A DNA stretch of 64,000 nucleotides from Thermofilaceae archaeon (lineage in GTDB: Archaea > Thermoproteota > Thermoprotei > Thermofilales > Thermofilaceae). Shown piece by piece: positions 3,941-20,252 of the stretch (its first letter is position 1; every line of letters begins with the position of its first letter). The DNA is taken from contig JAWCCZ010000002.1 of NCBI GenBank assembly GCA_038861545.1, positions 96,001-160,000 of the forward strand, written 5' to 3'. The notes under the pieces are model-generated. The model was not told where the DNA came from. It worked only from the letters and a program-made list of their open reading frames with translations, and did no database searches. Both the position numbers and the translations under genes were made by a program.

Positions 3941-4353
3941 TCTCAATAATTGTGGCGACGAGCAAAGGGTTCACATGCGTCTCAAGGCTTGCTCTCGTAA
4001 CTTTCGTTGAGATTATAGCTGGAAGATGTTTAGCTGACAAACCTGTGACGATAGCTCCTCACTCATGAGAGCTTGAAGTCACAAAGCTGCTCGTATAAAG
4101 TGATGCGTAACACCTTTACACACAGCAAATAAATGCCGCAACAGTCGAGCATGACAGCAGGGTCGAAGAAGAGCCGCTAGGTTGAAAGGGGATCCTCAAG
4201 TGCTTGGGCTCGAATTTCCATGCTTCAAAATGCTAAGGTATTTGGATACGCCGCGAGAAGCCGGAGCGTTCTCCTGCAAGCGTGGGGAAACACCCTAAAA
4301 AGGTGCCTAGAAGTCTTACGTTACCCTTTAATCGCTCGGTGGAACGGGGTTGT

Positions 4354-5076
4354 ATGCGGGTATTACATTTTCTCGGTCGATCTCTCCCAGAGACTTGGGA
4401 GACGGCGGTATCGGAGCTTTGGTTCTCCGGCGAAATCGTCGAGACCGAGTATGGTGAAAAGGCGAAGGAGGCGATGGCTGTTATAGAAGTTGCAGAGCCT
4501 TTTGCTGAGCCGCGCTTCCACCTGAAGGGCATCGTAGGGAAGGTTTCTGAGTACATCGCGGAAGTCGTGGAGGGCGTTCACGATGCAATGGTAGGGCAAT
4601 ACGGTTACACTTACCACGAGCGCTTGTTCAGTTATGCATCCCCTTTAGGCCCGGTAAACCAGATAGAGCGTATAGTTGAGAAACTTAGTAAAGCGTATTA
4701 CACACGCCGAGCGATTGCTGTAACATGGCAGCCATGGAGAGACCTGGAGAGCGAGCACCCACCCTGTCTAGTTTACCTCTGGTTCCATTCTTCTAACGGC
4801 GTAAACCTTAACGTGCACGCGCATATGAGAAGCAACGACGCCTTAAAGGCAGCTTTCATGAACATGCTCGCTTTCACAGCCCTCCAACAGCGAGTTGCTG
4901 AGCGGCTCGGTATGAGGGTTGGCAAGTACATACATACAGCCAGCAGCTTCCACATTTATGAGAGGGACTGGAAACACGCTGAGCACATCGCTAGGGCTGT
5001 CAAAGAAGGGAACAGCGGCGGCTGGCACCTCACTACGCAACAGTACTTGAAGCTCTTCGAGCGCGGCAATCGCTGA
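4354..5076 (+). CDS. thyA: Thymidylate synthase, archaeal ThyA-type
   Basis: YTYHERL, TRRAIAVTW, HPPCL (catalytic Cys), MRSND, N of MNMLAF, SFHIYE; ATG 4354 more likely than GTG 4282. Confidence 0.8.
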   Translation: MRVLHFLGRSLPETWETAVSELWFSGEIVETEYGEKAKEAMAVIEVAEPFAEPRFHLKGIVGKVSEYIAEVVEGVHDAMVGQYGYTYHERLFSYASPLGPVNQIERIVEKLSKAYYTRRAIAVTWQPWRDLESEHPPCLVYLWFHSSNGVNLNVHAHMRSNDALKAAFMNMLAFTALQQRVAERLGMRVGKYIHTASSFHIYERDWKHAEHIARAVKEGNSGGWHLTTQQYLKLFERGNR

Positions 5077-5290: not shown

Positions 5291-6169
5291 GTGCTTAGTT
5301 CGAGCGTGAAAGGAGAACGTTTCCTGAACCTGTACTGTTACAATAAAGAGCTACCACTAAACCCGGAAAAGGAACTCTTGAAGGAGGAAGACAAGTATAT
5401 CGCGTACATGTTACGGTACGACAGTATTGGTACCAGGGTGCCAGCGCTCCTCGCCTTACCTAGAGGGGAGGGGCCTCATCCCTGTCTCGTCTTCCTCCAT
5501 GGTCATGGTGGGAGAAAGGAGGATGGGTTATACGTGGCTGAAGCTGTTTCGCCTAGGGGCTACGCCGTTTTCTCGATAGACGCTCCCTGCCACGGAGAGA
5601 GAGGAGATCCAAGCGAGTATTTCAACCCAGACTTAGAGAAACTGAAGGGGAACTTTATACAGACGGTGCTGGACCTAATGAGAGGCTTAGACTATATTGA
5701 AAGCCTCAAGGAGGTGGATTCCAGCAGGATAGGTTACCTTGGCGGGAGTATGGGCGGGATACTTGGAGCCCTCTTCACCAGCCTAGATACTCGAGTTAAG
5801 GCTTCAGTAATACTAGTCGGCGGTGGCGACCTACCCCTGTTGCTGTGGCTCAGCAAGCACCCAGCAGCAGAGCGAATTAGGAAAAGAATAACTAGCATGG
5901 GGCTAAGCTATGAGCAAATGGCCGAAATAACTGCTCCAGGGGATCCGCTGAACTTTATCCACCTTCACTCTCCACGGCCAATTCAGTTCCACTGTGGAAG
6001 ATACGACGAGATAGTGCCTGCAGTAACCCAGAAAAAGCTGGTTGAAGCTGCTGGGGAACCGAAAGAGGTACACTGGTATGATGCTGGGCACGCACTCCCC
6101 CTTGAAGCAGTTTCTAAGAGGGTCCTCGAATTCTTTGAGCAATACTTAAAACCTTTAAAATTGGAGTAG
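5291..6169 (+). CDS. Alpha/beta-hydrolase (esterase/thioesterase-like)
   Basis: LHGHGG, GGSMGG nucleophile elbow, GRYDEIV (Asp), AGH (His). Confidence 0.85.
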   Translation: MLSSSVKGERFLNLYCYNKELPLNPEKELLKEEDKYIAYMLRYDSIGTRVPALLALPRGEGPHPCLVFLHGHGGRKEDGLYVAEAVSPRGYAVFSIDAPCHGERGDPSEYFNPDLEKLKGNFIQTVLDLMRGLDYIESLKEVDSSRIGYLGGSMGGILGALFTSLDTRVKASVILVGGGDLPLLLWLSKHPAAERIRKRITSMGLSYEQMAEITAPGDPLNFIHLHSPRPIQFHCGRYDEIVPAVTQKKLVEAAGEPKEVHWYDAGHALPLEAVSKRVLEFFEQYLKPLKLE

Positions 6170-6435: not shown

Positions 6436-7434
6436 TTAAATATCTAGGTAGCTGTGCTCTCTATACCATTCTATAGTCTCGCTTAATCCGTTGCGTAAAT
6501 CATACTTCGGCTTGTAGCCTAGTTCTCTTTTCGCTTTCTCAACACTGTAAGCCCTGTCGGTAGTGACGGAGTCGACCAGCGCGGTACGGTGCATTAAGTT
6601 ACCCTCTCCGGTTGCTAGGTCGTAGAGTTCAAGGGGGGCTAAGAGCAGCTTCGCGAACGCTGGGGGCAGCCTTACGCGTGGCGGCCCTTTACGGGATATC
6701 TCGTGGAGGATCTGATAGACTTGGTTGTACGTATACCATTTGTCTTCACTTATAATGTAAACCTGGTTTACAGCCACATCCTTTTCTAAAGCAAGTACGA
6801 AGCCTTGCACTATATCTTTGACGTGAGCGAACTGTACAAGGTTTTCCCCCGAACCTATTTTGACCTTACTCGCTAAGCCCCCTTTAACGTAGCTTGTTAT
6901 GAACCAATAAGAGACGTCGTCGACATTCCTTGGCCCGTATATCCCTGAAGGCCTAATGATCGTATACTCTAGCCCGTTCCCGGCGAGACTTTCAACGGTT
7001 TTCTCTGCTCTAGCCTTCGACTTCCCGTACTCGAATTGCGGGTTTAGTGGAGCATATTCATCGCCGGGCGGGTTTTTAACGGGGCCTATGGCTTCCGTGC
7101 TACTGCAATATATGAAACGCTTAACGCCGTTGTCGAGCGCTGCGCGCGCCGTCCACTCAGTACCCTTCACGTTTACGAGTTCATAAAGCCCTTTCTTTCC
7201 GAAGAACGTGTAGTACGCCGCTAAGTGTACTACGGAATCTACACCCTTCGTCGCGGGACCGAGGGTTTCAGGCCTTGTCACATCGCCGACTACTAGCTCG
7301 ACTCCCAGTTCTCTCAGGAGTCTTGTGTCACTTGTCCTGCGTACAAGGGCTCTAACAGAGTAGCCCCTGCTAATGAGCTCCTCTGAAAGATGGCCGCCGA
7401 GGAAACCCGATGCTCCTGTAACTAGGATTTTCAA
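6436..7434 (-). CDS. Extended SDR, NAD(P)-dependent epimerase/dehydratase / 3-beta-HSD-like reductase
   Basis: TGASGFLG, HLAA, SSTEA, YGKSK, RPSGIYGP; TTG start overlaps the luxC-like stop (TTGA). Confidence 0.9.
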   Translation of the reverse strand: MKILVTGASGFLGGHLSEELISRGYSVRALVRRTSDTRLLRELGVELVVGDVTRPETLGPATKGVDSVVHLAAYYTFFGKKGLYELVNVKGTEWTARAALDNGVKRFIYCSSTEAIGPVKNPPGDEYAPLNPQFEYGKSKARAEKTVESLAGNGLEYTIIRPSGIYGPRNVDDVSYWFITSYVKGGLASKVKIGSGENLVQFAHVKDIVQGFVLALEKDVAVNQVYIISEDKWYTYNQVYQILHEISRKGPPRVRLPPAFAKLLLAPLELYDLATGEGNLMHRTALVDSVTTDRAYSVEKAKRELGYKPKYDLRNGLSETIEWYREHSYLDI

Positions 7435-8870
7435 CTTGACCTCACCCTGATGTATGCTGTGTAGGAGAGAAGCGGCGCCAGGTAGAACCCATCATAGGGT
7501 TCTACAGGGGTTCTCATGTAGCTCTCGCCTAGCGGCACAACGCGGTAAACACCAAGCAGGTGGAGTTTACCTGTAATCTCCCGAAGCGCTTCCCTGCTAA
7601 CAGCTACGGAAAGTGTTTGAACCCTATCTACGCCTATGTAAGCTGGATTCTTTGGTAAGTTCCTAGCCAACTCCATAGCCTCACCCAGCGACTCTACGAC
7701 TATAATTTCGAGGAACCTCCCCCTAGCGTGGAGTGGGATAATCGCGTTCTGCGGGAGCAAGCCGAGAGCGGATTTCCCCCTGTTGAGTACAACTGTCCAC
7801 GGGTTGCGGGGATCATTACTAGCGTAAACCTTAGCGCCCACGAGCTCTAGGCTCCTGCGTAAAACGAATAAGGGATAGGGGATGCTCTCCATGGTCAGCG
7901 GGTACTCCCTGCCCACTCTGTCGAGCGCCCCGCTAAGGGTGCCAGCGAACTCCAGGGCATCCCCATAGGAGCCGATGAAAGCCGCTTGAGTTGGGCTGCT
8001 GCAGAGCTGCTGCTCATAGAGGATCATTTCGAGCGCGAGCCTCTCTGCAACTTCTTTAGTCGCGTTTTCCGAGTCTATTACCGCGAAACCCGTCATAGGC
8101 CCGTTAACAACGAGCTTCGGGTGATGAGGGTTAAGCGACACAGCGCGGGTTATTACCGTCCTGCCAGGCTCTCCGCCCCAGTAGTTCACCACGCCTAACG
8201 GGGCTTTCTCAAGCATGCCCCGGAAGGTTTCGCTCTCGTGGGTGAAGTAGCTTACTAATAGAGCTTGTCTGATGAAGTTGTCCTCTGGTAGGTTTTCGAG
8301 CTCGCTGTAAACCTCCTTCACTGCCCTGAAGTTTGTCAGAGAGGGTCTAAGAACTGTAAAGTTGCCGATACTCAGCGAAATAGTCGCAGGTATAAGCGGT
8401 GGGATTAGAGAGTTACCTGAACCTATTACAAGAATCGGACCAGCCGGTAAGTTCCTGATGTACTCGCCTGGAACCACCTCTACAGGCTCCTCTAAGCTTT
8501 TCGAGCCGCCTATGAGCGTCGAGTCGAACAGTTTACGTATATTCTGTGGGTTAAGCACCTCCCCTGCGAGCCTCATTTCCAACTCTATCAGCGCTGAGCT
8601 GTAACCTGTAGCTTTGACTAGTTCCTCCTTCACCCAATCCAGCTTCCCAGCTTCAAGCTTCTCCCTCCATACATCTCCGAGAAGCTGTACAACTCTTAAC
8701 CTCTCCATTAAGGGTATGTTTGAGAGATTCTGCTGAAAATTCACGGCTTTGCCGAGTAAAGAGAAGATCCAGTCGTACTTAGGCTCGTAAAAGCTTAAAC
8801 CCTTGATAGCGACAGGGTTCAGATCCCCCTCCCTAACCCCCGGGTATAGGGGCGTAACTCCGCTGCTCAT
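7431..8870 (-). CDS. LuxC-like acyl-protein/acyl-CoA reductase (ALDH superfamily)
   Basis: G.ILVIGSGN, YWGG, NGP..GFAVID, YEQQLCSSP (catalytic Cys), VQTLSV, RVVPLGE...PYDG; ATG 8870 overlaps the luxE-like stop (ATGA). Confidence 0.8.
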   Translation of the reverse strand: MSSGVTPLYPGVREGDLNPVAIKGLSFYEPKYDWIFSLLGKAVNFQQNLSNIPLMERLRVVQLLGDVWREKLEAGKLDWVKEELVKATGYSSALIELEMRLAGEVLNPQNIRKLFDSTLIGGSKSLEEPVEVVPGEYIRNLPAGPILVIGSGNSLIPPLIPATISLSIGNFTVLRPSLTNFRAVKEVYSELENLPEDNFIRQALLVSYFTHESETFRGMLEKAPLGVVNYWGGEPGRTVITRAVSLNPHHPKLVVNGPMTGFAVIDSENATKEVAERLALEMILYEQQLCSSPTQAAFIGSYGDALEFAGTLSGALDRVGREYPLTMESIPYPLFVLRRSLELVGAKVYASNDPRNPWTVVLNRGKSALGLLPQNAIIPLHARGRFLEIIVVESLGEAMELARNLPKNPAYIGVDRVQTLSVAVSREALREITGKLHLLGVYRVVPLGESYMRTPVEPYDGFYLAPLLSYTAYIRVRSS

Positions 8871-10153
8871 CGCACGGCGGCACCTTTGTACATAAGCTCC
8901 TCGAGCGTGCCCCCGCACGCTCTTTGCAAGCTCCACCCCTCCTCCTCTGTCAGCCTTCTGATGTACACGAACTCCCTGCCGTAGTACCGCTCAGATGGAA
9001 CCTGTTTTACCACGTCACCCGGAATGAAGACCTCAAGCCAGGATATAGCTAAGGGGTCAAATATCGCTAAGAGGCCCTCCTTGTTGAACTCGTTCATGGG
9101 TTTGTAGGTCCGTGGGTCAAGCAGGAAAACCTCCTGTAGCGGGTGGGGGATTTTATGCATGACACCATACTTGTCGAGGAGTGCTGTAAGCGTTTCAGTC
9201 ATACCCAGCACGTCCATGAAGGGGACCGGTACCTCATTGCCAGTAGCCGCGTCTTCCGCCCTGAAAACCTTCCTCGCCTCTTTAACGATAACATCGTACT
9301 CCGGGATTTGGAAGCCCTTAGCGCCGCCACCTGTTACTACAACGCCACCTCTCCCCAAATTGATGGGCGGAGCTCCTGTGAGGAGTTTATACAGCGTTTT
9401 TTTGAGCAAGTTTAAACTTCCAAACTGTTCAGCGACGAGGTGAACGCCGGCTGGAGCCGAGAAGAAAAGTTTCGGCTCATCCCTGCTTTTAACGAACTCC
9501 AGTATCCTCTTCCTGTTAGGGACCAACCTTTTCCACGTTGGACCTCCACTGGAGTCCTGGACAAAATCCATGCCGTAAAGCAGTTTTATACCTTTGTACT
9601 GGAGTGCAAGGTCTACGAATGCTACGAAGTTTAGTTGGTTTCTCAGCTCCTCGGCTGCTAGGAAGAGGGCTAAGCCCTCCTTCGGCTTAAGAACGTTGCC
9701 GTAAACGTACTCAAAGAGGTTCGCATTAGCTACGGTCATCGCTACAAGCTCTAACGGGCTTCTGTACACTTTAACGGGATCTTTTCCGCTAGTACCGCTT
9801 GAACGGAACGTAAAACCCTCCTCGTCCCTGCCGGGTAAAAGGAACTTTGTGAGGCCTTCGCCTCTCAGCATATCTGAGGGCACGGCCAGTTTAGCTAGAT
9901 CTTCGAGCTCGGCTGCTTTAGGGTCAACGCCCTGCGTTTCGAGAAGCTTCTCATAAAACTCGCTGTTCCTGATAAAAAACTCCAATCCGCTCCTCAGGAG
10001 ATCCCTCCTAAGCTTTGAAAGGTAATCAGGCGATTTTTCGAAAAGGCCTCTATCTTGAGCCAGTTCTACTAGCTTTTTCACGTGGGGGTCGTTTAAAAAC
10101 TTGCTTTCCTGAGATCTCTGAGCTAATACCTCAAATGAGGGAAGTTTCTCCAT
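8867..10153 (-). CDS. LuxE-like acyl-protein synthetase
   Basis: FRSSGTSG loop, TGGGAKG, DVLGMTE, LLDPRT, EGLLAIFDP, C-terminal RAC (LuxE RGC acylation Cys). Confidence 0.8.
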   Translation of the reverse strand: MEKLPSFEVLAQRSQESKFLNDPHVKKLVELAQDRGLFEKSPDYLSKLRRDLLRSGLEFFIRNSEFYEKLLETQGVDPKAAELEDLAKLAVPSDMLRGEGLTKFLLPGRDEEGFTFRSSGTSGKDPVKVYRSPLELVAMTVANANLFEYVYGNVLKPKEGLALFLAAEELRNQLNFVAFVDLALQYKGIKLLYGMDFVQDSSGGPTWKRLVPNRKRILEFVKSRDEPKLFFSAPAGVHLVAEQFGSLNLLKKTLYKLLTGAPPINLGRGGVVVTGGGAKGFQIPEYDVIVKEARKVFRAEDAATGNEVPVPFMDVLGMTETLTALLDKYGVMHKIPHPLQEVFLLDPRTYKPMNEFNKEGLLAIFDPLAISWLEVFIPGDVVKQVPSERYYGREFVYIRRLTEEEGWSLQRACGGTLEELMYKGAAVR

Positions 10154-10955
10154 AATGTTCGGGCTTTACTCTTTGGTTAAATAAATTTCGTTTTTTGAGA
10201 ATCTTCTTGCTCTAAAGCGGAGGTAAAGGTCCTACTTTTTCAAGCTGAAGATAGCCATCCGCTTTTCAATGCAAGAGCTCAAGGCCAGCTACTTCAAGTT
10301 TCTATGTCGAAGCCCATGTGAAAAGTATTAGTGACGGGTAAGCACCCAATTCCCCCTGGTGAAAAACGCCGAACATGAAGATAATGCATCTCAAAGTGCG
10401 CATTGTATAGCTTAAATCAGAGACTAGATCTCGACAAATAATTAGTTTTACACCTCCTGAAATCCTCGGAGACTCCGATGAGCAGGAAAAGTAGAGCCGC
10501 TGCCGGGCAAGAGTTTGCAAGCATGAAGGCACTAGCGGTGTACCCCTGTTTTCCCTCGGTTTTACCGATCCCTAAGCCTTCGCCCATAGACCGGCTCAGC
10601 CCGAAGGACTTCAGCAATACATTCCGAGACCTTCTTGCTTGCTTTACCCCCACCCGGCAAAAATTATATTAAAACAGAGGGTAAAAGTACCTTGTGTTTC
10701 GTATCGAAAGTTTCGGATAAGTTAAGTATTTTCGGTACAATCGCTTGTATATCGTAATTTTCTTTATTTTTATAAAGGGTATTGGAGCGCTCAAGCTGAC
10801 GGCAGCCGATATCGCAAGTCCATACCGGGCTCTCAACCTTTAACTTTAACGCGAGATTATCTAGTGATAATGCACCTGTAGCATTAGAGCAATTCTATGC
10901 ATATAATATCTAGATAGTATGGCTAGATTTTTAAGCTAGCTCTTAATCTATACCT

Positions 10956-11198
10956 GTGGCTAAAATCCAAGTCAACCTGAAATTGGAGCAGAAGCTCGTA
11001 GAGGAGGTGGAGAAACTGGTTAGTGAGGGCTATTTTCCGTCAAAAACTGAGGCTTTCACTCAAGCTCTCAAGATGCTTGTCAGAAAGTACAAGGTTGATG
11101 AGATGAAAAGGAAGTTTGATAAAATAAGAGAAGGCACTGAGTCTTTGCCAAGCGTCTCGTTAGCTGTCATTGATTCCCACGAGGAAGAAGATGTTTAG
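10956..11198 (+). CDS. vapB: Ribbon-helix-helix (CopG-like) antitoxin
   Basis: IQVNLKL...VEKLVSEGYFPSKTEA..QAL RHH pattern; directly upstream of and overlapping a PIN gene. Confidence 0.8.
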   Translation: MAKIQVNLKLEQKLVEEVEKLVSEGYFPSKTEAFTQALKMLVRKYKVDEMKRKFDKIREGTESLPSVSLAVIDSHEEEDV

Positions 11199-11649
11199 TG
11201 AGTTAATTTTGGACGCCAGTGTGCTTGTGAAGTGGTTTAAGAGAGGAGAGGATTACGAGGAAGAAGCTTTACAGCTATTTGATGATGTGTTAGCCGGTAG
11301 AATAGCAGTGGCTTGCTCTGAGTGGGCTCTCCTCGAGATTTTCCGGGGCCTTCGAAAAGCTGGGTTTCCCTCAGCGAAAATAAGTGAAAGTCATGACGTG
11401 TTAAAGGAGCTTGTAGAACTGGATTATCTAGAGCTTGTTCCAGTTTCCGAGGTTTTAGACCATGCTAGAAAACTTATTATTAATTTAAACCTTTACGCTT
11501 CCGATGCTGTACACCTTGCAACCGCGTTAAAACGTGAGAGAAACCTCGTTAGCGAGGACAGGCATCTCTTACGCAGCGATGTGATTCAATATGCGCAGGA
11601 GCACAGGGTTAAGGTTTTTCGACTCATAGATATAAAGACAATGGATTGA
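11191..11649 (+). CDS. vapC: PIN-domain toxin VapC
   Basis: ILDASVLVKW, E of ALLE, YASDAVHLATA, LVSED; ATG 11191 overlaps the antitoxin stop. Confidence 0.9.
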   Translation: MFSELILDASVLVKWFKRGEDYEEEALQLFDDVLAGRIAVACSEWALLEIFRGLRKAGFPSAKISESHDVLKELVELDYLELVPVSEVLDHARKLIINLNLYASDAVHLATALKRERNLVSEDRHLLRSDVIQYAQEHRVKVFRLIDIKTMD

Positions 11650-11801: not shown

Positions 11802-12725
11802 ATGAAGACAGCAGTTGTTAGATCCTATGGTTTGATAGCAGCCGTGGTAACTCCGATGAACGGGAAGTTTGAAATACAATACGAAGAGTTCGAGAAATAT
11901 ATTAAATGGGTCGTGTCGCAGGGAGTGGCTGGAGTGGCGGTAGGAGTTGATACAGGAGAAAGCCAGTTGCTGTACAGGGAAGAGAAACTGGAGCTAGTCC
12001 GTGCTGCGAAGAAAGCGGTAGGCAGCAGCGCGGTTATAGTAGCCGGGTTACAAGTCCACAACACCCTCGAAGCTATAAAGATGGCTGGAGACCTCAGGGG
12101 TGCTGGAGCCGACGCGCTGCTCGTATTCCCACACCCAGCGTTCATTGGAGAGCCCAACGACGATGTAATATATGAGTACCATAAAGCTGTTAACGACGCC
12201 GTCGATATTCCTCTCATTGCATTCAACTTGCAACCAGCGCTCGGCGGTGTAGAGTATAAGCCGGGTGTTCTCAGAAGACTTTCAGGGCTGGAGAACGTGG
12301 CAGCGATAAAGGAAGCATCCTTTGACGCTAGGAAGTTCCTCGACATGGTGCTGGCTGTCGAAAAGCTACCGAGGAAAATTCAAGTGCTCACGGGGAATGA
12401 CAACTTTGTTTACGAGTCGCTCGTCATGGGGGCTGAGGGTGGATTGTTGGGTTTCGGTACAATAGCTGTGAAAGAGCAGGTTGAGATGTTTAACCTGGTT
12501 GAGAAAGAGCGGTATAGAGAAGCTAGGGAGATATGGATGCAGTTGCGGCCGCTGATGGAGGTGGTTTTCGCGCCGCCTGTCCGAAACTACAGGGCTCGCT
12601 TGAAGGAGGCGTTGTGCATGATGGGGATTCTCGAAGCAGCGCATGTACGGCCACCGCTTCTCCCGGTAAGCTCCAGAGAACGTGAGGATCTGAAGCGAGT
12701 GCTCAAGGAGTTGAAAATGGTGTAG
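11802..12725 (+). CDS. DapA/NAL-family Schiff-base lyase, non-canonical
   Basis: VTP, GVDTGE, GADALLVFP, IKEAS (Schiff-base Lys), LTGND, VRPPL. Confidence 0.85.
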   Translation: MKTAVVRSYGLIAAVVTPMNGKFEIQYEEFEKYIKWVVSQGVAGVAVGVDTGESQLLYREEKLELVRAAKKAVGSSAVIVAGLQVHNTLEAIKMAGDLRGAGADALLVFPHPAFIGEPNDDVIYEYHKAVNDAVDIPLIAFNLQPALGGVEYKPGVLRRLSGLENVAAIKEASFDARKFLDMVLAVEKLPRKIQVLTGNDNFVYESLVMGAEGGLLGFGTIAVKEQVEMFNLVEKERYREAREIWMQLRPLMEVVFAPPVRNYRARLKEALCMMGILEAAHVRPPLLPVSSREREDLKRVLKELKMV

Positions 12726-12747: not shown

Positions 12748-13953
12748 ATGCTGTCCGCTCAGCTGGATCTTTCCGTAACTGTATTTGGCCGCACAATCCC
12801 CAATCCCCTTATCGTGGCTTCAGGCCCCAACGCTAGGAATGACAACGATATAGTAAGGTGCCTCAGCCGAGGGGCAGCCGGTGTAGTGACTAAGACGATA
12901 ACCTTCGATAGGATGCAGCAGGTGCAACCCAAACCGCGGATGCATATTCTTCTCAAGGACGCGTTCGTAAGCGGAGGCTTTTACTCCTTCTACTCAATAG
13001 ACCTCATGTCCGAGTACCCACCCGAGCAGTGGACCACGATGCTGCGGAGAGCTAGGCTAGAAGCCGAGAAGAAAAAGCTAGAAGGCCTAATTATAGCCAG
13101 TATCGCGGGGAGAAACTATGGGGAGTGGGAACAGCTTACGGAGCTGGTTGCTAGCGCCGAGGTAGATGCAATAGAGACAAACCTTTCATGCCCGCACATC
13201 GAACCGGGCAAGGTGCTTATGGGGAGGGCTGCTGCTACCGATCCGGAGTTGATCAAGGGTATCTTAAGGGTGGTGAAGGACGCGGCGAAAAGCATTCCCG
13301 TTATTGGGAAGATAACTCCTCACGGAGCCAATCCGATTATCATAGCGAAAGCCATGAAGGAGGGGGGTGCGGACGCCGTAGTTTCAACGGCAAGATACCA
13401 GGGATTAATCATAGACGTTGAAACGCTGCAACCCATTGCGTGGGGTGGCTATGGCGGCTACGGTGGGCCTTGGCAATTACCTGTAAGCCTCGCTTGGACG
13501 TCGCAGGTAGCTAGAGAGAACCTTGGAATCCCCATCATAGGCTCAGGGGGTATTTCGAGTGGAGAGGATATAGTCAGGTTCATACTCGTCGGAGCGCACG
13601 CGGTTCAAGCTTGCACGAGCATTCTCCTGCACGGTCCTTCGATTATTGGAAGATTGCTGAACGAGCTGAGGGCTTGGATGGTGAGAAAGGGTTTTACTAG
13701 CTTGAACGAGTTCAGAGGCTTAATGCTGCAGAGGATAAAGAGCTTGGAGCAACTCAACAGAGAGAAAGTATTCCGGGTCGAAGTAAGCACCAACTGCAAG
13801 GCCTGTATGAGATGCGTGGAGGCGTGCCCTTACAAGGCGTTAAAAGCCGAGGGGAAAGCTATTACAGTTGACTGGGAGTGCTGCGATAACTGTGGTCTCT
13901 GCGAGTCAATATGTCCATTCGACGCCATTAAGCTAGCTCCTAGAGGCTGGTAA
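12748..13953 (+). CDS. Dihydropyrimidine/dihydroorotate dehydrogenase-like FMN enzyme with C-terminal 2x[4Fe-4S] domain (PreA-like)
   Basis: NPLIVASGP, VTKT, ETNLSCPH, GKITP, IIGSGGI, VQACT; CKACMRCVEACP and CDNCGLCESICP. Confidence 0.85.
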   Translation: MLSAQLDLSVTVFGRTIPNPLIVASGPNARNDNDIVRCLSRGAAGVVTKTITFDRMQQVQPKPRMHILLKDAFVSGGFYSFYSIDLMSEYPPEQWTTMLRRARLEAEKKKLEGLIIASIAGRNYGEWEQLTELVASAEVDAIETNLSCPHIEPGKVLMGRAAATDPELIKGILRVVKDAAKSIPVIGKITPHGANPIIIAKAMKEGGADAVVSTARYQGLIIDVETLQPIAWGGYGGYGGPWQLPVSLAWTSQVARENLGIPIIGSGGISSGEDIVRFILVGAHAVQACTSILLHGPSIIGRLLNELRAWMVRKGFTSLNEFRGLMLQRIKSLEQLNREKVFRVEVSTNCKACMRCVEACPYKALKAEGKAITVDWECCDNCGLCESICPFDAIKLAPRGW

Positions 13954-15608: not shown

Positions 15609-17522
15609 CTAACCTCTAGAGTTGAGGGCTTGAAATCTCCGAGTAAACCTCCTTAAAAATAACGCTGCCAAGGTTGCACTAATTCCAGCAGCCAAGCCGA
15701 GGAATATGTTCCGCGCGCTCCAATTACCTCCCTCTGCTGGCTCCGCCGGTTCGTAGTGTGGATACACCTCCAACTTAATGCTGCTCTCCTCAAGTACTGG
15801 CTTGCCTGTAGTTGACCACGACTCCATTTGAACCTTGACAGGAGTACCTGTAGCAGTAACTGATAGCTTAACGCTCTCCCCGGGTCCAATGTATGGCAAA
15901 TACACTAAATACGAAGTATTATTAAGAGAAACCTGGTAAGCGTAGAAAACGCTCGGCTCTACTATAACGTTTACTGTTGCGTTGACCACCGTTAGCCTGG
16001 TGATTACAGCTGGCTCTTCACCACTATTCTCAACAATAATAGTTGCCGTGTTACCCTCCCCTAAAAGTCGGACTCGAACTTGAAACGTCACCCCCGCTAG
16101 TGGCTGCCAACTCTTATAGCGGGCTACATACTCTTTCGTTAAATCAAGATATTGAAAGCCATGCTCTCTACTCGGCTCGATCTCTGTACCCTCATGCCAC
16201 TCATTCCATGTACAAATAATTATGATGTCAGGCTCGCTGGCGAGTGCGGCTTCCCATGTCTTCCTATAGTAGGCGCCAGCTTCCCTCGATACGTAAGCAC
16301 CAGGTTCACGAATCTTTCTATCATCATAGCCTGGGTTAACAGTAGCGATCCAAAGTTTTCTCAAGCTTTCAGCAGTACCTAGGTCAACATACGACTTGAC
16401 AAGTCTTGATTGTTTCAGATAGGTGCTTATGTGATCCTGAATCCAAATCGGGTTATAGGTGTGTAGACCGTTGAAGACAGTTAAATAAGTTATATCGAAT
16501 ATATCAGCGATATAAAGAGCCTTTATTCCCGTAGCTTTCTCTACACTCTTCAAGATATGGTTCCAGAAGTCTGGAGTTCTACTATATGCTTCGACTGCAT
16601 ATATGAAAATAACAGGCCTTCCCTCGATCTTGAGAAAGACTGGATGTTCAGCGTATTTCCTTAACACATATGAGAGTTCATCTATGATCTGCTCAGCCGT
16701 TAGCTCCCTCGCCGATTCATAATATATTGTCATATTAAAGTGCTCCTCAGCTGCAACGTCTAACATCCGAGCAAAAGCCTCGTCCTCAAACGTTCTTATA
16801 CCCCACCACGAAATAACGAAGCCGTCGATTCCCACCGCTTTTGCCATTTTTATGTGTGAGCGCACAACTCTGGGATCCCATGAATCATAAGGCCCTAAAA
16901 GCGGGTAATCAGTTGAAGATCCTATGCCGGTATATGAGATTCCTCTCCAGTGAAACCATCTACCTGATGCTCCTTGCGGAGTGCCATACCACGGGTAATA
17001 GAACGCGAGAACCAGTCTCGGTACAGCTAGCTCCCTTACCTTGGAAGCCTCAGTAAGTGTTACCCTGGGTAGATGCGAACTTCTTGGATTAAAGCCGCTG
17101 CTACCCGGGACTACACCTGTATTAGTGAACTCCCATACCGTTTTCTCCACGCCTGGGACAAGAACTCGCACAATAGTGTATCCAATGTCGCCTTTCACCA
17201 CTGTTACGTTAACTGTAGCGTCCGTGAACATAAGCCAACCCTTAACTCTCATTCGGACTAGTGTAGCATCATACTGTTTTTTGTTAATGGAGATACTGCC
17301 GCCAGTGGCTGAAACCTTAAGGTCGGGGACGGTTAATCCTTCAATAAGCGAGAAATTATAAGCTGTGAAACCGGTGATAGTTACAGTTGTCCAGTCAGAG
17401 TTTGTCTCGACTTCAACGATGAGGTAATACACAACGTACTCCTGTGCACAAGTGAAGCCACTTACAAACAGTGTAAACAGGATGGCGACTATTACCATTA
17501 AGGTTAAGGTGCCTTGCCTCAT
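15609..17522 (-). CDS. Cell-surface GH99-family glycoside hydrolase (endo-alpha-mannosidase/mannanase-like)
   Basis: Signal peptide; AFYYPWYG, YPLLGPYDS, SWWG, PGYDD, WNEWHEGTEIEP; C-terminal TM plus basic tail. Confidence 0.85.
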   Translation of the reverse strand: MRQGTLTLMVIVAILFTLFVSGFTCAQEYVVYYLIVEVETNSDWTTVTITGFTAYNFSLIEGLTVPDLKVSATGGSISINKKQYDATLVRMRVKGWLMFTDATVNVTVVKGDIGYTIVRVLVPGVEKTVWEFTNTGVVPGSSGFNPRSSHLPRVTLTEASKVRELAVPRLVLAFYYPWYGTPQGASGRWFHWRGISYTGIGSSTDYPLLGPYDSWDPRVVRSHIKMAKAVGIDGFVISWWGIRTFEDEAFARMLDVAAEEHFNMTIYYESARELTAEQIIDELSYVLRKYAEHPVFLKIEGRPVIFIYAVEAYSRTPDFWNHILKSVEKATGIKALYIADIFDITYLTVFNGLHTYNPIWIQDHISTYLKQSRLVKSYVDLGTAESLRKLWIATVNPGYDDRKIREPGAYVSREAGAYYRKTWEAALASEPDIIIICTWNEWHEGTEIEPSREHGFQYLDLTKEYVARYKSWQPLAGVTFQVRVRLLGEGNTATIIVENSGEEPAVITRLTVVNATVNVIVEPSVFYAYQVSLNNTSYLVYLPYIGPGESVKLSVTATGTPVKVQMESWSTTGKPVLEESSIKLEVYPHYEPAEPAEGGNWSARNIFLGLAAGISATLAALFLRRFTRRFQALNSRG

Positions 17523-18257: not shown

Positions 18258-20252
18258 TTGCACATTAATAGAAGAAAAAGCGAGCATGGGAAAATCACCT
18301 GGGTATTAGGAGCACTAGCTTTACTTCTCACATTGTTTTTCGCAGTTGTTATTTACCAGAGAAGTATGGAGAAAGTAGAGGTGGGAAACTTGGCTAAAAT
18401 AGTCGTCTTCCCCGCGGGGCCCTTGGATAGAGTGTATAAGGATACATCTCCCTTAAAGGTTGGAGAGCCACTTAAGCTGTCCGCTGTGAAGAACGAATAC
18501 GTTGGTAGCATGTTCGGCGTCTGGAGCACCCAAAATTTAAAGGGGTTGCGGCTTGAGGTAACTGACCTCAAGTCTGAGAGGGGAATAATCAACGCTAGCA
18601 ACGTGAAAGCCTTCTTTGTCGGTTTAATACCAGTCACGTCTAACTCACCTGCACCGCTAGAAGAATTGGAGAGAAGAGCTTCCAGCGAAATCCCCGATCC
18701 CATTCTCGAGGAGGCAAAGGAGATAGACCTTGAAGCAGGTGTAACTCAACCGTGTTACCTGCGTGTTTATGTTCCATCGGATGCAAAGCCGGGAGAGTAT
18801 AAAGGCTACGTGACAGTCAGGGCTGAAAGCCTTGAAACAAGGATGGAAGTAGTTTTACTCGTTCATCCTATTACACTGCCAAGCAGGAGGAGTTTATATG
18901 TGACGAACTGGTTTAGTATCTGGAATATAGCTAAGTTCTACAACGTAGAACTCTGGAGTGAAGAATTCTGGGATATCTTTGAGCGCTGGGTGAAGTTCAT
19001 GGTCGAATACCGGCAGAACGTGTTCTGGGTCCCACTCGATACGATAAAAGTCTATAAGATCGCTGACAGCTACAAGTTCGATTTCTCAGTTTTCGACCTC
19101 TACGTAGAAATTCTCCTCAAGAATGGGGCTGAACTTATTGAGATCACTCACATTGCTGGTTTTAAGCAGTGGGGCGGGCGCGAGATCGAGCTAAAGAGCT
19201 TCCAAGTGGTCTACGGGCCTGAAGACATTAGAACAGAACCCGGTGAACTCGTGCTACCTCATCTATTAACAGCTTTAGAGAAACACCTTCGCGAAAAGGG
19301 GTGGCTTAAGAGGACTGTAATTCACGTTGCAGATGAGCCAACGGAGGACGGTATCGAGGAATGGAGGAGAGTTTCAAAAATGGTTAAGGAATTCGCTCCA
19401 AGCCTTCGCAGAATTGATGCTGTTGAGACGATTGGCTTCGGCGAGGATTTAGAGATATTAGTTCCCACCCTCCACCACTACGACCAATGGATAGACAAGT
19501 ACGAGGCAGAGAGAAAGGAGGGGAGAGAGTTATGGTTCTACACTTGCCTTAACCCACAGGGCAGATACCCAAACCGTTTCATCGATTTCCCGTTAATTAA
19601 GACTCGTATCCTTCACTGGATTAACTACGCTTACGACCTAAAGGGTTTCCTTCACTGGGGCTACAACTGGTGGTACGGCGATCCATTCAAGGACCTCAAC
19701 CCACAGTTACCACCAGGCGACACTCATATTGTTTACCCCGGCAAGCAAGGGCCTCTGCCGAGCCTGCGACTTGAGGCGATGAGGGATGGATTGGAGGATT
19801 ACGAGCTTTTCAAGCTACTTGAAGAAGAGATTATGGCTTTGAAGGAAGAACTGGGTGGGAAAGCTCTTGAATTACCTTTCGAGAAAAGAGCACTTGAGCT
19901 ATGCCGAAAAGCAGTTCCATCACTCACCAGCTACGTTAAAGATCCTATTAAGTTCTTGGAGATACGCGAGGAGGTGATAAGAGAATTATTAGAGGTGAGG
20001 GAAAAACCACTGGCTCTTGTGTTAACTGAACCCCCAGAGTGGAGGCCAATCACTTGGGGACCGTTAATGATCATAGTGAAAGGCGTTTGTGAGGAAGGTG
20101 TAAAGATAGAAGTAAATGGTAAACCTGTACTAGTGCAAAAGGGGTACTTTGCTACATATACATTTCCAAACCAGAGAGGTGAGATTAGGATAAGAGTTTG
20201 GAATGAAGAGTATGAGAAAGTAATCGTGCGAAAGTTTACAATAATCGAGTGA
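18258..20252 (+). CDS. Membrane-anchored GH123-like / DUF4091 glycoside hydrolase
   Basis: N-terminal TM; IPDPIL, IHVADEP (DE pair), WFYTC, GFLHWGYN, PGD..IVYPG, SLRLEAMRDGLEDYE. Confidence 0.8.
   Translation: MHINRRKSEHGKITWVLGALALLLTLFFAVVIYQRSMEKVEVGNLAKIVVFPAGPLDRVYKDTSPLKVGEPLKLSAVKNEYVGSMFGVWSTQNLKGLRLEVTDLKSERGIINASNVKAFFVGLIPVTSNSPAPLEELERRASSEIPDPILEEAKEIDLEAGVTQPCYLRVYVPSDAKPGEYKGYVTVRAESLETRMEVVLLVHPITLPSRRSLYVTNWFSIWNIAKFYNVELWSEEFWDIFERWVKFMVEYRQNVFWVPLDTIKVYKIADSYKFDFSVFDLYVEILLKNGAELIEITHIAGFKQWGGREIELKSFQVVYGPEDIRTEPGELVLPHLLTALEKHLREKGWLKRTVIHVADEPTEDGIEEWRRVSKMVKEFAPSLRRIDAVETIGFGEDLEILVPTLHHYDQWIDKYEAERKEGRELWFYTCLNPQGRYPNRFIDFPLIKTRILHWINYAYDLKGFLHWGYNWWYGDPFKDLNPQLPPGDTHIVYPGKQGPLPSLRLEAMRDGLEDYELFKLLEEEIMALKEELGGKALELPFEKRALELCRKAVPSLTSYVKDPIKFLEIREEVIRELLEVREKPLALVLTEPPEWRPITWGPLMIIVKGVCEEGVKIEVNGKPVLVQKGYFATYTFPNQRGEIRIRVWNEEYEKVIVRKFTIIE

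Follow-up and report, generated by a model that had tools for sequence, protein, structure and literature searches.

A LuxE-like/LuxC/SDR gene cassette of anaerobic archaea as a candidate system for carboxylic acid reduction

A three-gene operon encoding a LuxE-like protein, a LuxC-family protein, and an SDR (short-chain dehydrogenase/reductase) of the extended type was analyzed in a 64,000-nucleotide stretch of DNA from a Thermofilaceae archaeon (contig JAWCCZ010000002.1, positions 96,001–160,000; hereafter, the window). The operon occupies positions 6436–10153 of the window and probably constitutes an ATP- and NADPH-driven module, independent of coenzyme A (CoA) and acyl carrier protein (ACP), in which a carboxylic acid would be reduced to an aldehyde and then to an alcohol. 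A CoA- and ACP-independent acid-to-aldehyde reductase acting with the SDR had been proposed in a sequence-only reading of the region, and it appears to remain the best interpretation. The assignment draws on homology to known enzymes, conserved catalytic residues, conserved gene order, a natural gene fusion, and a predicted protein complex.

Organization of the operon

The genome containing the window is 1.63 Mb in size and 92% complete. In a read-run search, DNA of the window stretch was present only in hot-spring DNA runs, from two studies, and the closest named homologues were those of Thermofilaceae. The genes of the operon and a sequence element upstream of them are as follows.

8867–10153, minus strand: gene 1, predicted LuxE-like acyl-adenylate/acyl-protein synthetase of 428 amino acid residues (open reading frame, ORF, and its translation)
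7431–8870, minus strand: gene 2, predicted LuxC-family acyl-thioester reductase of 479 residues from the ATG at 8870 (PF05893)
6436–7434, minus strand: gene 3, extended SDR of the 3beta-HSD/HpnA-like group, 332 residues from a TTG start, proposed NADPH-dependent aldehyde reductase (Pfam, NCBIfam, and PDB)
10177–10188, minus strand: A/T-rich TATA-like box, AAATTTATTTAA, centered about 30 nt 5′ of the luxE-like ATG (sequence read)

The arrangement of three minus-strand genes joined by ATGA (8867–8870) and TTGA (7431–7434) overlaps, described earlier, was confirmed in the raw sequence. In 'gcgATGAgc', the stop codon TGA of the LuxE-like gene (8869–8867) overlaps the luxC ATG (8870–8868), and in 'caagTTGAaaa', the luxC stop codon (7433–7431) overlaps the SDR TTG (7434–7432). 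The listed ORF of gene 2 spans 7431–8936 and begins at an upstream GTG at 8936; this longer ORF is an artefact of ORF listing, and the ATG at 8870 is the real start. The SDR translated from the TTG start begins with MKILVTGASGFLGG, in agreement with the homologue consensus MKVLVTGASGFLGG. Close homologues of each of the three ORFs number in the hundreds, and most of the 80 archaeal loci described below repeat this gene order; the three are therefore not chance ORFs. The AAATTTATTTAA box could be an archaeal promoter of the operon, in which case the transcript would have a very short leader or be leaderless.

The reported absence of luxAB, ACP, and luxD from the operon extends further: Bac_luciferase (PF00296), LuxD (Acyl_transf_2, PF02273), and ACP (PP-binding) had no match anywhere in the window genome at its completeness of 92%. 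No luxG was found in this genome, and neither luxAB nor luxD was found in the 80 archaeal cassette loci.

The LuxE-like protein

The motifs named in the sequence-only reading were all found in the translations, namely RSSGTSGK and QRAC413GG in the LuxE-like protein, YEQQLC290SSP in the LuxC-family protein, and the YxxxK motif formed by Y136 and K140 in the SDR. The codons of the putative functional residues of the LuxE-like protein are located as follows.

9785–9802, minus strand: P-loop S118-S-G-T-S-G123, ANL motif A3 for ATP binding (alignment to LuxE 'FTSSGTSG')
9317–9319, minus strand: K279 of the TGGGxK loop, counterpart of LuxE Lys238 (alignment to LuxE 234-GGGWK-238)
8954–8959, minus strand: R399-R400 of YIRRL, counterpart of LuxE R354/R355 (alignment to LuxE 'VRRLN')
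8915–8917, minus strand: Cys413, codon TGC, in the QRACGG tail, proposed acyl-carrying cysteine (codon read, invariant)

RSSGTSGK lies at residues 117–124, and S118, S119, G120, T121, K279, R399-R400, and Cys413 (QRACGG) were invariant in an alignment of 20 sequences. LuxE K238, R354/R355, and Cys364 correspond to K279 (TGGGxK), R399/R400 (VRRL), and Cys413 (QRACGG), respectively. In the bacterial enzyme, where mutagenesis has shown such residues to matter, the K238A mutant is inactive, R355 belongs to the active site, and R354 is salt-bridged to LuxC; LuxE is distinguished by the absence of the ANL C-terminal subdomain, and its acyl-carrying Cys364 sits on a flexible tail (PMC9157457). Cys413 lies 13 residues past the RR pair, the spacer between R355 and Cys364 of LuxE being 9 residues, and it stands at the start of a tail predicted to be disordered (pLDDT <50 from residue 414). 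The C-terminal Cys is also kept in a Theionarchaea subfamily and in the linker of a natural LuxE-like/LuxC fusion. Invariant charged residues, such as E148, E169, R171, and D314, were also observed outside the known ANL motifs. With a mean column identity of 67% across phyla, the LuxE-like proteins form a compact and distinct archaeal family.

Of the two profile assignments expected from the sequence-only reading, that of gene 2 to PF05893 (LuxC) was upheld with 116.7 bits, and that of gene 1 to PF04443 (LuxE) was not: the LuxE-like protein had no PF04443 match even at E ≤ 10 and no Pfam match at all. The LuxE model of NCBIfam (NF052244) gave 17.5 bits against a cut-off of 550, covering residues 46–125 only. 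A precomputed PF04443 match was present on a few close homologues. Since the protein fails PF04443, 'luxE' is used here as a description of its working mode and not of Pfam membership.

Searches against sequences of solved structures placed the protein nearest to LuxE. The single query found LuxE (7xc6_E) as the best solved relative with an E-value of 5e-4, and the family profile ranked LuxE first (9.2e-5, in two collinear stretches) and PaaK second (0.079). Against 1.84 billion representative proteins, the family profile gave 74 matches in all, among which there was no PaaK, and the distant full-length matches P0169, P0178, and P0182 were genuine PF04443 proteins (1e-40 to 1e-62). By language-model features, 27 of the 30 nearest ESM Atlas clusters carried PF04443. 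The AlphaFold model of the LuxE-like protein (mean pLDDT 84.5) gave TM-scores of 0.72 and 0.79 against predicted models of LuxE-family proteins, 0.73 against that of a Bacteroidota LuxE-LuxC fusion, and 0.66 against that of PaaK. The protein is thus closer to LuxE than to PaaK by sequence profile, language-model features, and predicted-model fold. The assignment named earlier as the competing outcome, a PaaK/F390-type ligase with an ordinary aldehyde dehydrogenase (ALDH), was not what the profiles gave; the only PDB match of the gene 2 family profile was LuxC 7xc6_A.

Among solved folds, the best matches were PaaK-type CoA ligases with 13–16% identity (Foldseek and VIA-align), namely PaaK1/PaaK2 (2Y27/2Y4O), BT_0428 (4R1M), and 2-hydroxyisobutyryl-CoA ligase (HCL; 6HE0), with a Foldseek E-value of 1e-12, VIA Z of 25–26, and an rmsd of 3.0 Å over 313–323 residues. 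Residues 25–405 of the model aligned only to the N-terminal domain of these enzymes (residues 7–330 of PaaK1 and 4–361 of HCL). As the whole model covers only PaaK1 7–330, the C-terminal subdomain of the CoA ligases is missing, as in LuxE. Past the end of the PaaK1 alignment, the LuxE-like protein has about 24 residues, consisting of a helix and the disordered tail, and the model accordingly holds no counterpart of the PaaK-type C-terminal subdomain, whose catalytic Lys (K422 of PaaK1) serves adenylation and CoA thioesterification. The LuxE chain 7xc6_E was not among the solved fold matches, which is uninformative either way because its structure is fragmentary according to the paper (PMC9157457). 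Many members are labeled 'phenylacetate-CoA ligase' by JGI, and other database names are hypothetical protein and 'LuxE domain-containing'. We therefore read gene 1 as encoding a sister family of LuxE, LuxE-like in its working and outside PF04443 as now modelled.

The LuxC-family protein

The LuxC-family protein matched positions 5–393 of the 401 positions of PF05893 with an E-value of 1.6e-33, its score of 116.7 bits standing against a low cut-off of 21 that also fires in several control genomes. The gene is present as a single copy in the window genome. A family profile built from 19 orthologues and compared with all PDB sequences had LuxC 7xc6_A as its only match (5e-18), and no ordinary ALDH was found among these sequences. 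NF052251, the equivalog model for LuxC of lux operons, gave 46.1 bits against a cut-off of 750, and gene 2 is accordingly no ortholog of that LuxC. The catalytic residue is assigned as follows.

8001–8003, minus strand: codon of Cys290 (YEQQLCSSP), counterpart of the catalytic LuxC Cys296 (computed from the ATG at 8870)

Cys290 aligned with the catalytic Cys of LuxC 'YDQQACFS', and Y285, Q287, Q288, L289, C290, S292, and P293 were invariant in 19 sequences, giving the motif YxQQLCSSP. The mean column identity of the family across phyla was 54%. The positions that form the L-shaped hydrophobic cleft of LuxC were also mapped, the numbering of the paper being the chain numbering plus 11. Three of the five helix positions carry L, L, and I, and the other two carry E and K; the cleft residue S166 is replaced by an invariant Pro in the archaeal protein, and at about 20% identity the mapping is too uncertain for a call between a polar and an apolar substrate. 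On its sequence, gene 2 belongs to the LuxC family and not to the ordinary ALDHs.

The extended SDR

Gene 3 matched Epimerase (3.4e-42) and 3Beta_HSD (9e-33) of Pfam. The best NCBIfam models were HpnA (TIGR03466; 2.9e-50) followed by SdmB and OleD, all under their cut-offs; for the HpnA equivalog, the score was 171 bits against 367.65. GASGFLGG and Y136-G-K-S-K140 are present in the protein. In the SDR alignment, G7xxG10xxG13 was nearly invariant and S111, Y136, K140, and Arg32 were invariant; the mean column identity across phyla was 66%. An Arg after strand beta-2 is a sign of NADP(H) preference in SDRs, and the position of Arg32 after beta-2 suggests that the enzyme is of the NADPH type. 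By far the best PDB match, over the full length, was 3wj7 (3.3e-47), which has the NADPH-type segment 'LVRxTSD' in common with the archaeal SDR. We take 3wj7 to be Gox2253 of Gluconobacter oxydans, an enzyme that reportedly prefers C7–C10 aliphatic aldehydes. Gox2253 is called an aldehyde reductase in a preprint.

Coupling of the three genes

Eighty archaeal loci were collected with the LuxE-like family alignment, and their neighboring genes were grouped by ORF clustering. Of the 80 loci, 68 contained LuxC and 61 contained the SDR. The genes stood in the order E-C-S in most loci, and many of those lacking LuxC or SDR stop within or just past the E gene. Independent gene calls gave the same trio in Methanosuratincola, Methanomassiliicoccales, and Thermosphaera. 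Conservation of the three-gene neighborhood, which the sequence-only reading had left to be examined, thus holds across several archaeal phyla.

No conserved fourth gene was found across the 80 loci, and the flanks vary by lineage. The loci of Methanomassiliicoccales are flanked by GrpB, a MenA-like UbiA, and a radical SAM gene, those of Methanomethylophilaceae by pyruvate carboxylase, those of the Brockarchaeota-like group by a ComB-like gene, and those of Methanomethylicia by thioredoxin, glutaredoxin, and ferredoxin-thioredoxin reductase. Because they are lineage-specific, the flanking genes are not taken as evidence on function. In locus L025 (13779–14735) and its equivalents in 15 Methanomassiliicoccales loci, the UbiA prenyltransferase gene directly follows the trio on the same strand. 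Its best matches, which are weak, are MenA-type 1,4-dihydroxy-2-naphthoate prenyltransferases. Next comes a small radical SAM gene in convergent orientation, and GrpB lies upstream. This synteny of UbiA, radical SAM, and GrpB with the trio is lineage-specific, and no functional link is drawn from it.

LuxC likewise comes next after divergent relatives of gene 1, as seen in a Theionarchaea subfamily, in two metagenomic relatives, and in an actinobacterial relative (Pseudonocardia) whose LuxC gene was uncalled in the annotation. One divergent relative has a convergent Zn-alcohol dehydrogenase gene beside LuxC in place of the SDR. On the metagenome contig with P0140 (ENA ERZ27249652), a divergent LuxE-like/LuxC pair is flanked by a sulfotransferase, a sulfatase, and a convergent Zn-alcohol dehydrogenase, a neighborhood that hints at an alcohol-sulfate product in that lineage. 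A second LuxE-like/LuxC subfamily occurs in a different conserved operon on Theionarchaea-like metagenome contigs (L092, 2652–10648; L090, 2668–10655). The order there is carbamoyltransferase (Carbam_trans_N/C), one or two proteins outside known families, radical SAM, radical SAM/SPASM, LuxE-like, and LuxC; the last two are fused in L090, and both contigs carry a divergent TrmB regulator upstream and no SDR. This operon looks like an uncharacterised biosynthetic cluster for a small molecule or cofactor.

The LuxE-like and LuxC proteins occur as a natural fusion of 884 amino acid residues, in which a cysteine segment, RRL...PGCG, forms the linker. Structure prediction of the complex of the two window proteins, suggested in the sequence-only reading, gave an ipSAE of 0.69 against 0.00 for the best control, a result that may reflect likeness to the known structure, since 7XC6 is solved. 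Of 80 solved complexes, 58 attained the 0.69 mark, as did 2 of 110 mismatched pairs. Agreement between runs covered at least 39% of contacts, and the partner pLDDT was at least 80. The predicted contact uses region 328–347 of LuxC, which by an approximate mapping would lie near the place where LuxC D335 pairs with LuxE R354 in 7XC6. The natural fusion and the passing prediction both speak for a coupling between the LuxE-like protein and LuxC. The three cassette proteins all appear to be soluble, and there is no linked lipid-handling gene.

Distribution and mobility of the cassette

The cassette was found in Thermofilaceae, Desulfurococcaceae, Methanomethylicia, Brockarchaeota, Methanomassiliicoccales, Odinarchaeia, and Archaeoglobales. 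The carriers include the cultured Thermofilum pendens and Methanosuratincola petrocarbonis as well as methyl-reducing methanogens and an Asgard class. When a window protein of the cassette was used as the query on sampled genomes, the cassette was detected in 39 of 401 Thermoproteota genomes and 5 of 301 Thermoplasmatota genomes. The Thermoproteota matches were concentrated in two families (16/32 and 11/17 genomes), which, judged from the loci, correspond to Methanomethylicia and a Brockarchaeota-like group. Among the other genomes of the family of the window, 5 of 12 carried the cassette, and it was not found in the one other sampled genome of the genus (91% complete). An earlier suggestion of lipid salvage in Thermofilum is weakened by this distribution within the family and by the higher frequency in Methanomethylicia and the Brockarchaeota-like family.

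In a second Thermofilaceae genus, only the trio matched at the DNA level (window 6442–10105, 72% identity) and the flanks did not. The FastTree gene tree placed Odinarchaeia and Archaeoglobales among Thermoproteota lineages. The patchy spread, the differing surroundings within one family, and the mixing in the tree indicate that the three genes behave as an accessory unit, moving horizontally among anaerobic archaea, and not as part of core metabolism. No tRNA was found within 25 kb, and no integrase or terminal repeat marks the cassette in the window. A 20-nt pair with 80% identity (6432/10898) was considered as a flanking repeat and is probably due to chance. Matches reported with TAG stops inside in several genomes were considered as pyrrolysine sites and proved to be normal stop codons overrun by the alignments.

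Proposed mechanism and alternatives

By analogy with the bacterial enzymes, we infer the chemistry of each step and the direction of the reaction. The LuxE-like enzyme would adenylate a free carboxylic acid with ATP by means of its P-loop, K279, and R400, and the acyl group would then be moved onto its own Cys413 on the flexible C-terminal tail. The tail would swing into the bound LuxC-type partner and pass the acyl group to Cys290, where NADPH would cleave the thioester and the aldehyde would be released. Finally, the NADPH-type extended SDR would reduce the aldehyde to a primary alcohol. Action of the SDR on the aldehyde released by LuxC is a guess from the operon context and the nearest solved relative.

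The two-enzyme logic of the archaeal pair is the same as that of LuxC-LuxE of Photobacterium phosphoreum (7XC6; Tian et al. 2022, PMC9157457). Both systems have an adenylating ANL-type enzyme without the C-terminal subdomain, with a Cys on a short flexible C-terminal tail, and an adjacent gene for an ALDH-fold reductase with a lone catalytic Cys. In contrast to lux LuxE, the archaeal protein is 55 residues longer, has a 13-residue instead of a 9-residue spacer, and fails both PF04443 and NF052244. The gene order is E-C in archaea and C...E in bacteria, the SDR is joined into the archaeal operon, and luxD, luxAB, and luxG are not found in the window genome; the archaeal hosts are anaerobic and have isoprenoid lipids. 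The PaaK-family CoA ligases resemble gene 1 in the P-loop, the A5/A7/A8-type motifs, and the fold of the large N-terminal domain, whereas nothing in it corresponds to their C-terminal subdomain, the seat of the catalytic Lys and the CoA site. The archaeal SDR has GxxGxxG, Ser-Tyr-Lys, and 'LVRxTSD' in common with Gox2253-type/HpnA-like SDRs (3WJ7, TIGR03466), while falling under the HpnA cut-off (171 vs. 368 bits), and to our knowledge archaea make no hopanoids. Carboxylic acid reductases (CAR) and fatty acyl-CoA/ACP reductases (FAR) carry out the same net ATP- and NADPH-dependent chemistry from acid to aldehyde or alcohol as that proposed for the cassette. CAR works with a phosphopantetheine arm plus a thioester-reductase domain, and FAR depends on acyl-CoA or acyl-ACP, whereas a protein Cys is the proposed carrier in the cassette; unlike the case of CAR, no PP-binding domain was found in the window genome.

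The substrate is perhaps an aliphatic acid of medium or long chain length, whether fatty, branched, or isoprenoid, a weak and tentative preference held because the nearest relatives of the SDR act on aliphatic aldehydes or lipids. The cassette may serve to turn an organic acid that is exogenous or toxic into a neutral alcohol, or to make a specialised alcohol. It is improbable that fatty or isoprenoid acids, taken up or self-made, are converted into long-chain alcohols that enter or modify the membrane as free, wax-like, or non-canonical ether lipids.

Several points weigh against the reduction of an acid to an alcohol as proposed here. The LuxE-like protein fails the LuxE profiles, its best solved folds are CoA ligases, and the LuxC cleft positions are mixed in character. 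The SDR family includes ketoreductases, decarboxylating dehydrogenases, and sugar-nucleotide enzymes (HpnA, SdmB, OleD, and LegB), and this diversity makes the aldehyde as the SDR substrate a guess from context. As divergent E-C pairs without the SDR exist, the pathway could end at the aldehyde. The trio is present in the isolate M. petrocarbonis LWZ-6 (L016), and only ordinary archaeol, glycerol dialkyl glycerol tetraethers (GDGT), and glycerol monoalkyl glycerol tetraethers (GMGT) are reported among its lipids (PMC12244365). This speaks against a structural-lipid product, and is weak counter-evidence because the analysis used an archaeal-lipid library (PMC12244365).

The same acid-to-aldehyde core could instead serve a small polar substrate, such as a hydroxy-, keto-, dicarboxylic, or amino acid, with the SDR acting possibly on a keto or hydroxy group instead of the aldehyde and with a hydroxy-aldehyde or diol for a glycan, cofactor, or solute as the product. 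We regard this as rather unlikely. It has a precedent in LuxC/E-like RfbN, for which a role in the tetronate (2,4-dihydroxybutyrate) substituent of Vibrio cholerae O1 has been proposed. The high mean column identities of the three proteins (67%, 54%, and 66%) are more typical of one defined small substrate, the NCBIfam neighbors OleD and SdmB of the SDR act on beta-keto/beta-hydroxy acids, and the soluble appearance of the three proteins and the lack of a linked lipid-handling gene point the same way. The invariant charged residues E148, E169, R171, and D314 would also fit if they line the pocket. On the other hand, the solved enzyme nearest to the SDR is an aldehyde reductase, reportedly for C7–C10 aliphatic aldehydes, and no gene of the sugar-nucleotide, glycosyltransferase, or cofactor kind shows a consistent link in the 80 loci.

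The two remaining explanations change the chemistry itself. If gene 1 encoded a PaaK-type acyl-CoA ligase of the ordinary kind and gene 2 a reductase of acyl-CoA, the acid would pass through free acyl-CoA on its way to the aldehyde and alcohol, with no protein-bound acyl transfer. The solved folds nearest to gene 1 (VIA Z 26), the JGI label on many members, and the acceptance of acyl-CoA by LuxC (PMC9157457) favor such a route. However, the subdomain that provides the catalytic Lys and positions CoA is absent, with the model stopping at about residue 330 of PaaK1 and about 24 residues left, whereas the LuxE-specific replacement Lys (GGGxK loop) and the C-terminal Cys are invariant. Sequence profile, language-model features, and predicted-model comparison all lie nearer to LuxE, and a natural LuxE-like/LuxC fusion exists; a CoA route is therefore considered very unlikely. 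Even less plausible is operation in the oxidative direction, in which the SDR would convert an alcohol to the aldehyde, LuxC would form acyl-Cys and pass the acyl group on, and the LuxE-like enzyme would turn acyl-AMP and pyrophosphate into ATP, resulting in substrate-level energy conservation. By textbook redox potentials, the Lux fatty-acid-reductase reaction is inferred to lie near thermodynamic balance, the conversion of ATP to AMP and pyrophosphate being set against the NADPH-dependent reduction of acid to aldehyde; AMP-forming ligases run backwards in some syntrophs, and every host of the cassette is a strict anaerobe. Yet the NADP(H)-type Arg of the SDR is typical of reductive enzymes, no linked genes for pyrophosphate handling or alcohol uptake were seen in the 80 loci, and the hosts include methyl-reducing methanogens without obvious alcohol catabolism. 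In addition, the LuxC cleft is thought to sequester the aldehyde and block the back reaction (PMC9157457).

Other genes in the window

Just upstream of the operon, on the opposite strand and in a low-GC stretch (0.43), a ribbon-helix-helix (CopG) gene (10956–11198, plus strand) overlaps a PIN-domain gene (11170–11649, plus strand), and the pair resembles VapBC-type toxin-antitoxin systems. An alpha/beta-hydrolase gene (DLH/AXE1/esterase-like; 5291–6169, plus strand) lies convergent to the SDR gene. LuxD and OleB likewise belong to the alpha/beta hydrolases, but other cassette loci do not keep this neighbor. A thymidylate-synthase-like ORF lies at 4282–5076, and its match covers only part of the Pfam model. 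Further along, a dihydrodipicolinate synthase (DHDPS)-family gene (11802–12725, plus strand) is followed by a dihydroorotate-dehydrogenase-like gene (12748–13953, plus strand), whose product has two C-terminal 4Fe-4S ferredoxin motifs and is PreA/dihydropyrimidine-dehydrogenase-like. Glycoside hydrolase genes (GH5 cellulase-like, GH99/GH71-like, and GH123; 385–1443, 15609–17522, and 18258–20252) are distributed around the region, which fits a polysaccharide-degrading heterotroph.

Significance

To date, bacterial light production is the only case in which the reduction of an acid to an aldehyde by way of a protein-bound thioester has been worked out, and full-text literature searches found no paper on an archaeal LuxE/LuxC system. 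The analysis points to an archaeal sister family of LuxE that is paired with LuxC and, in its main clade, with the SDR, and that is distributed as a three-gene unit over at least six lineages of archaea. The residue-by-residue test of LuxE features, the missing C-terminal subdomain, the natural fusion, and the isolation of the family in sequence space are new here, as are the kinship of the SDR with an aldehyde reductase and the behavior of the cassette within one family. Its function is open to direct test, as cultured strains carry this self-contained module. The cassette would offer a thermostable, cofactor-simple carboxylic acid reductase for biocatalysis. Identification of the substrate would fill a blank in archaeal metabolism and could bear on whether archaea handle fatty acids or alcohols. 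If the improbable formation of membrane alcohols were true, fatty-acid-derived lipids would be a real, horizontally spreading trait of archaea, with a bearing on the 'lipid divide'.

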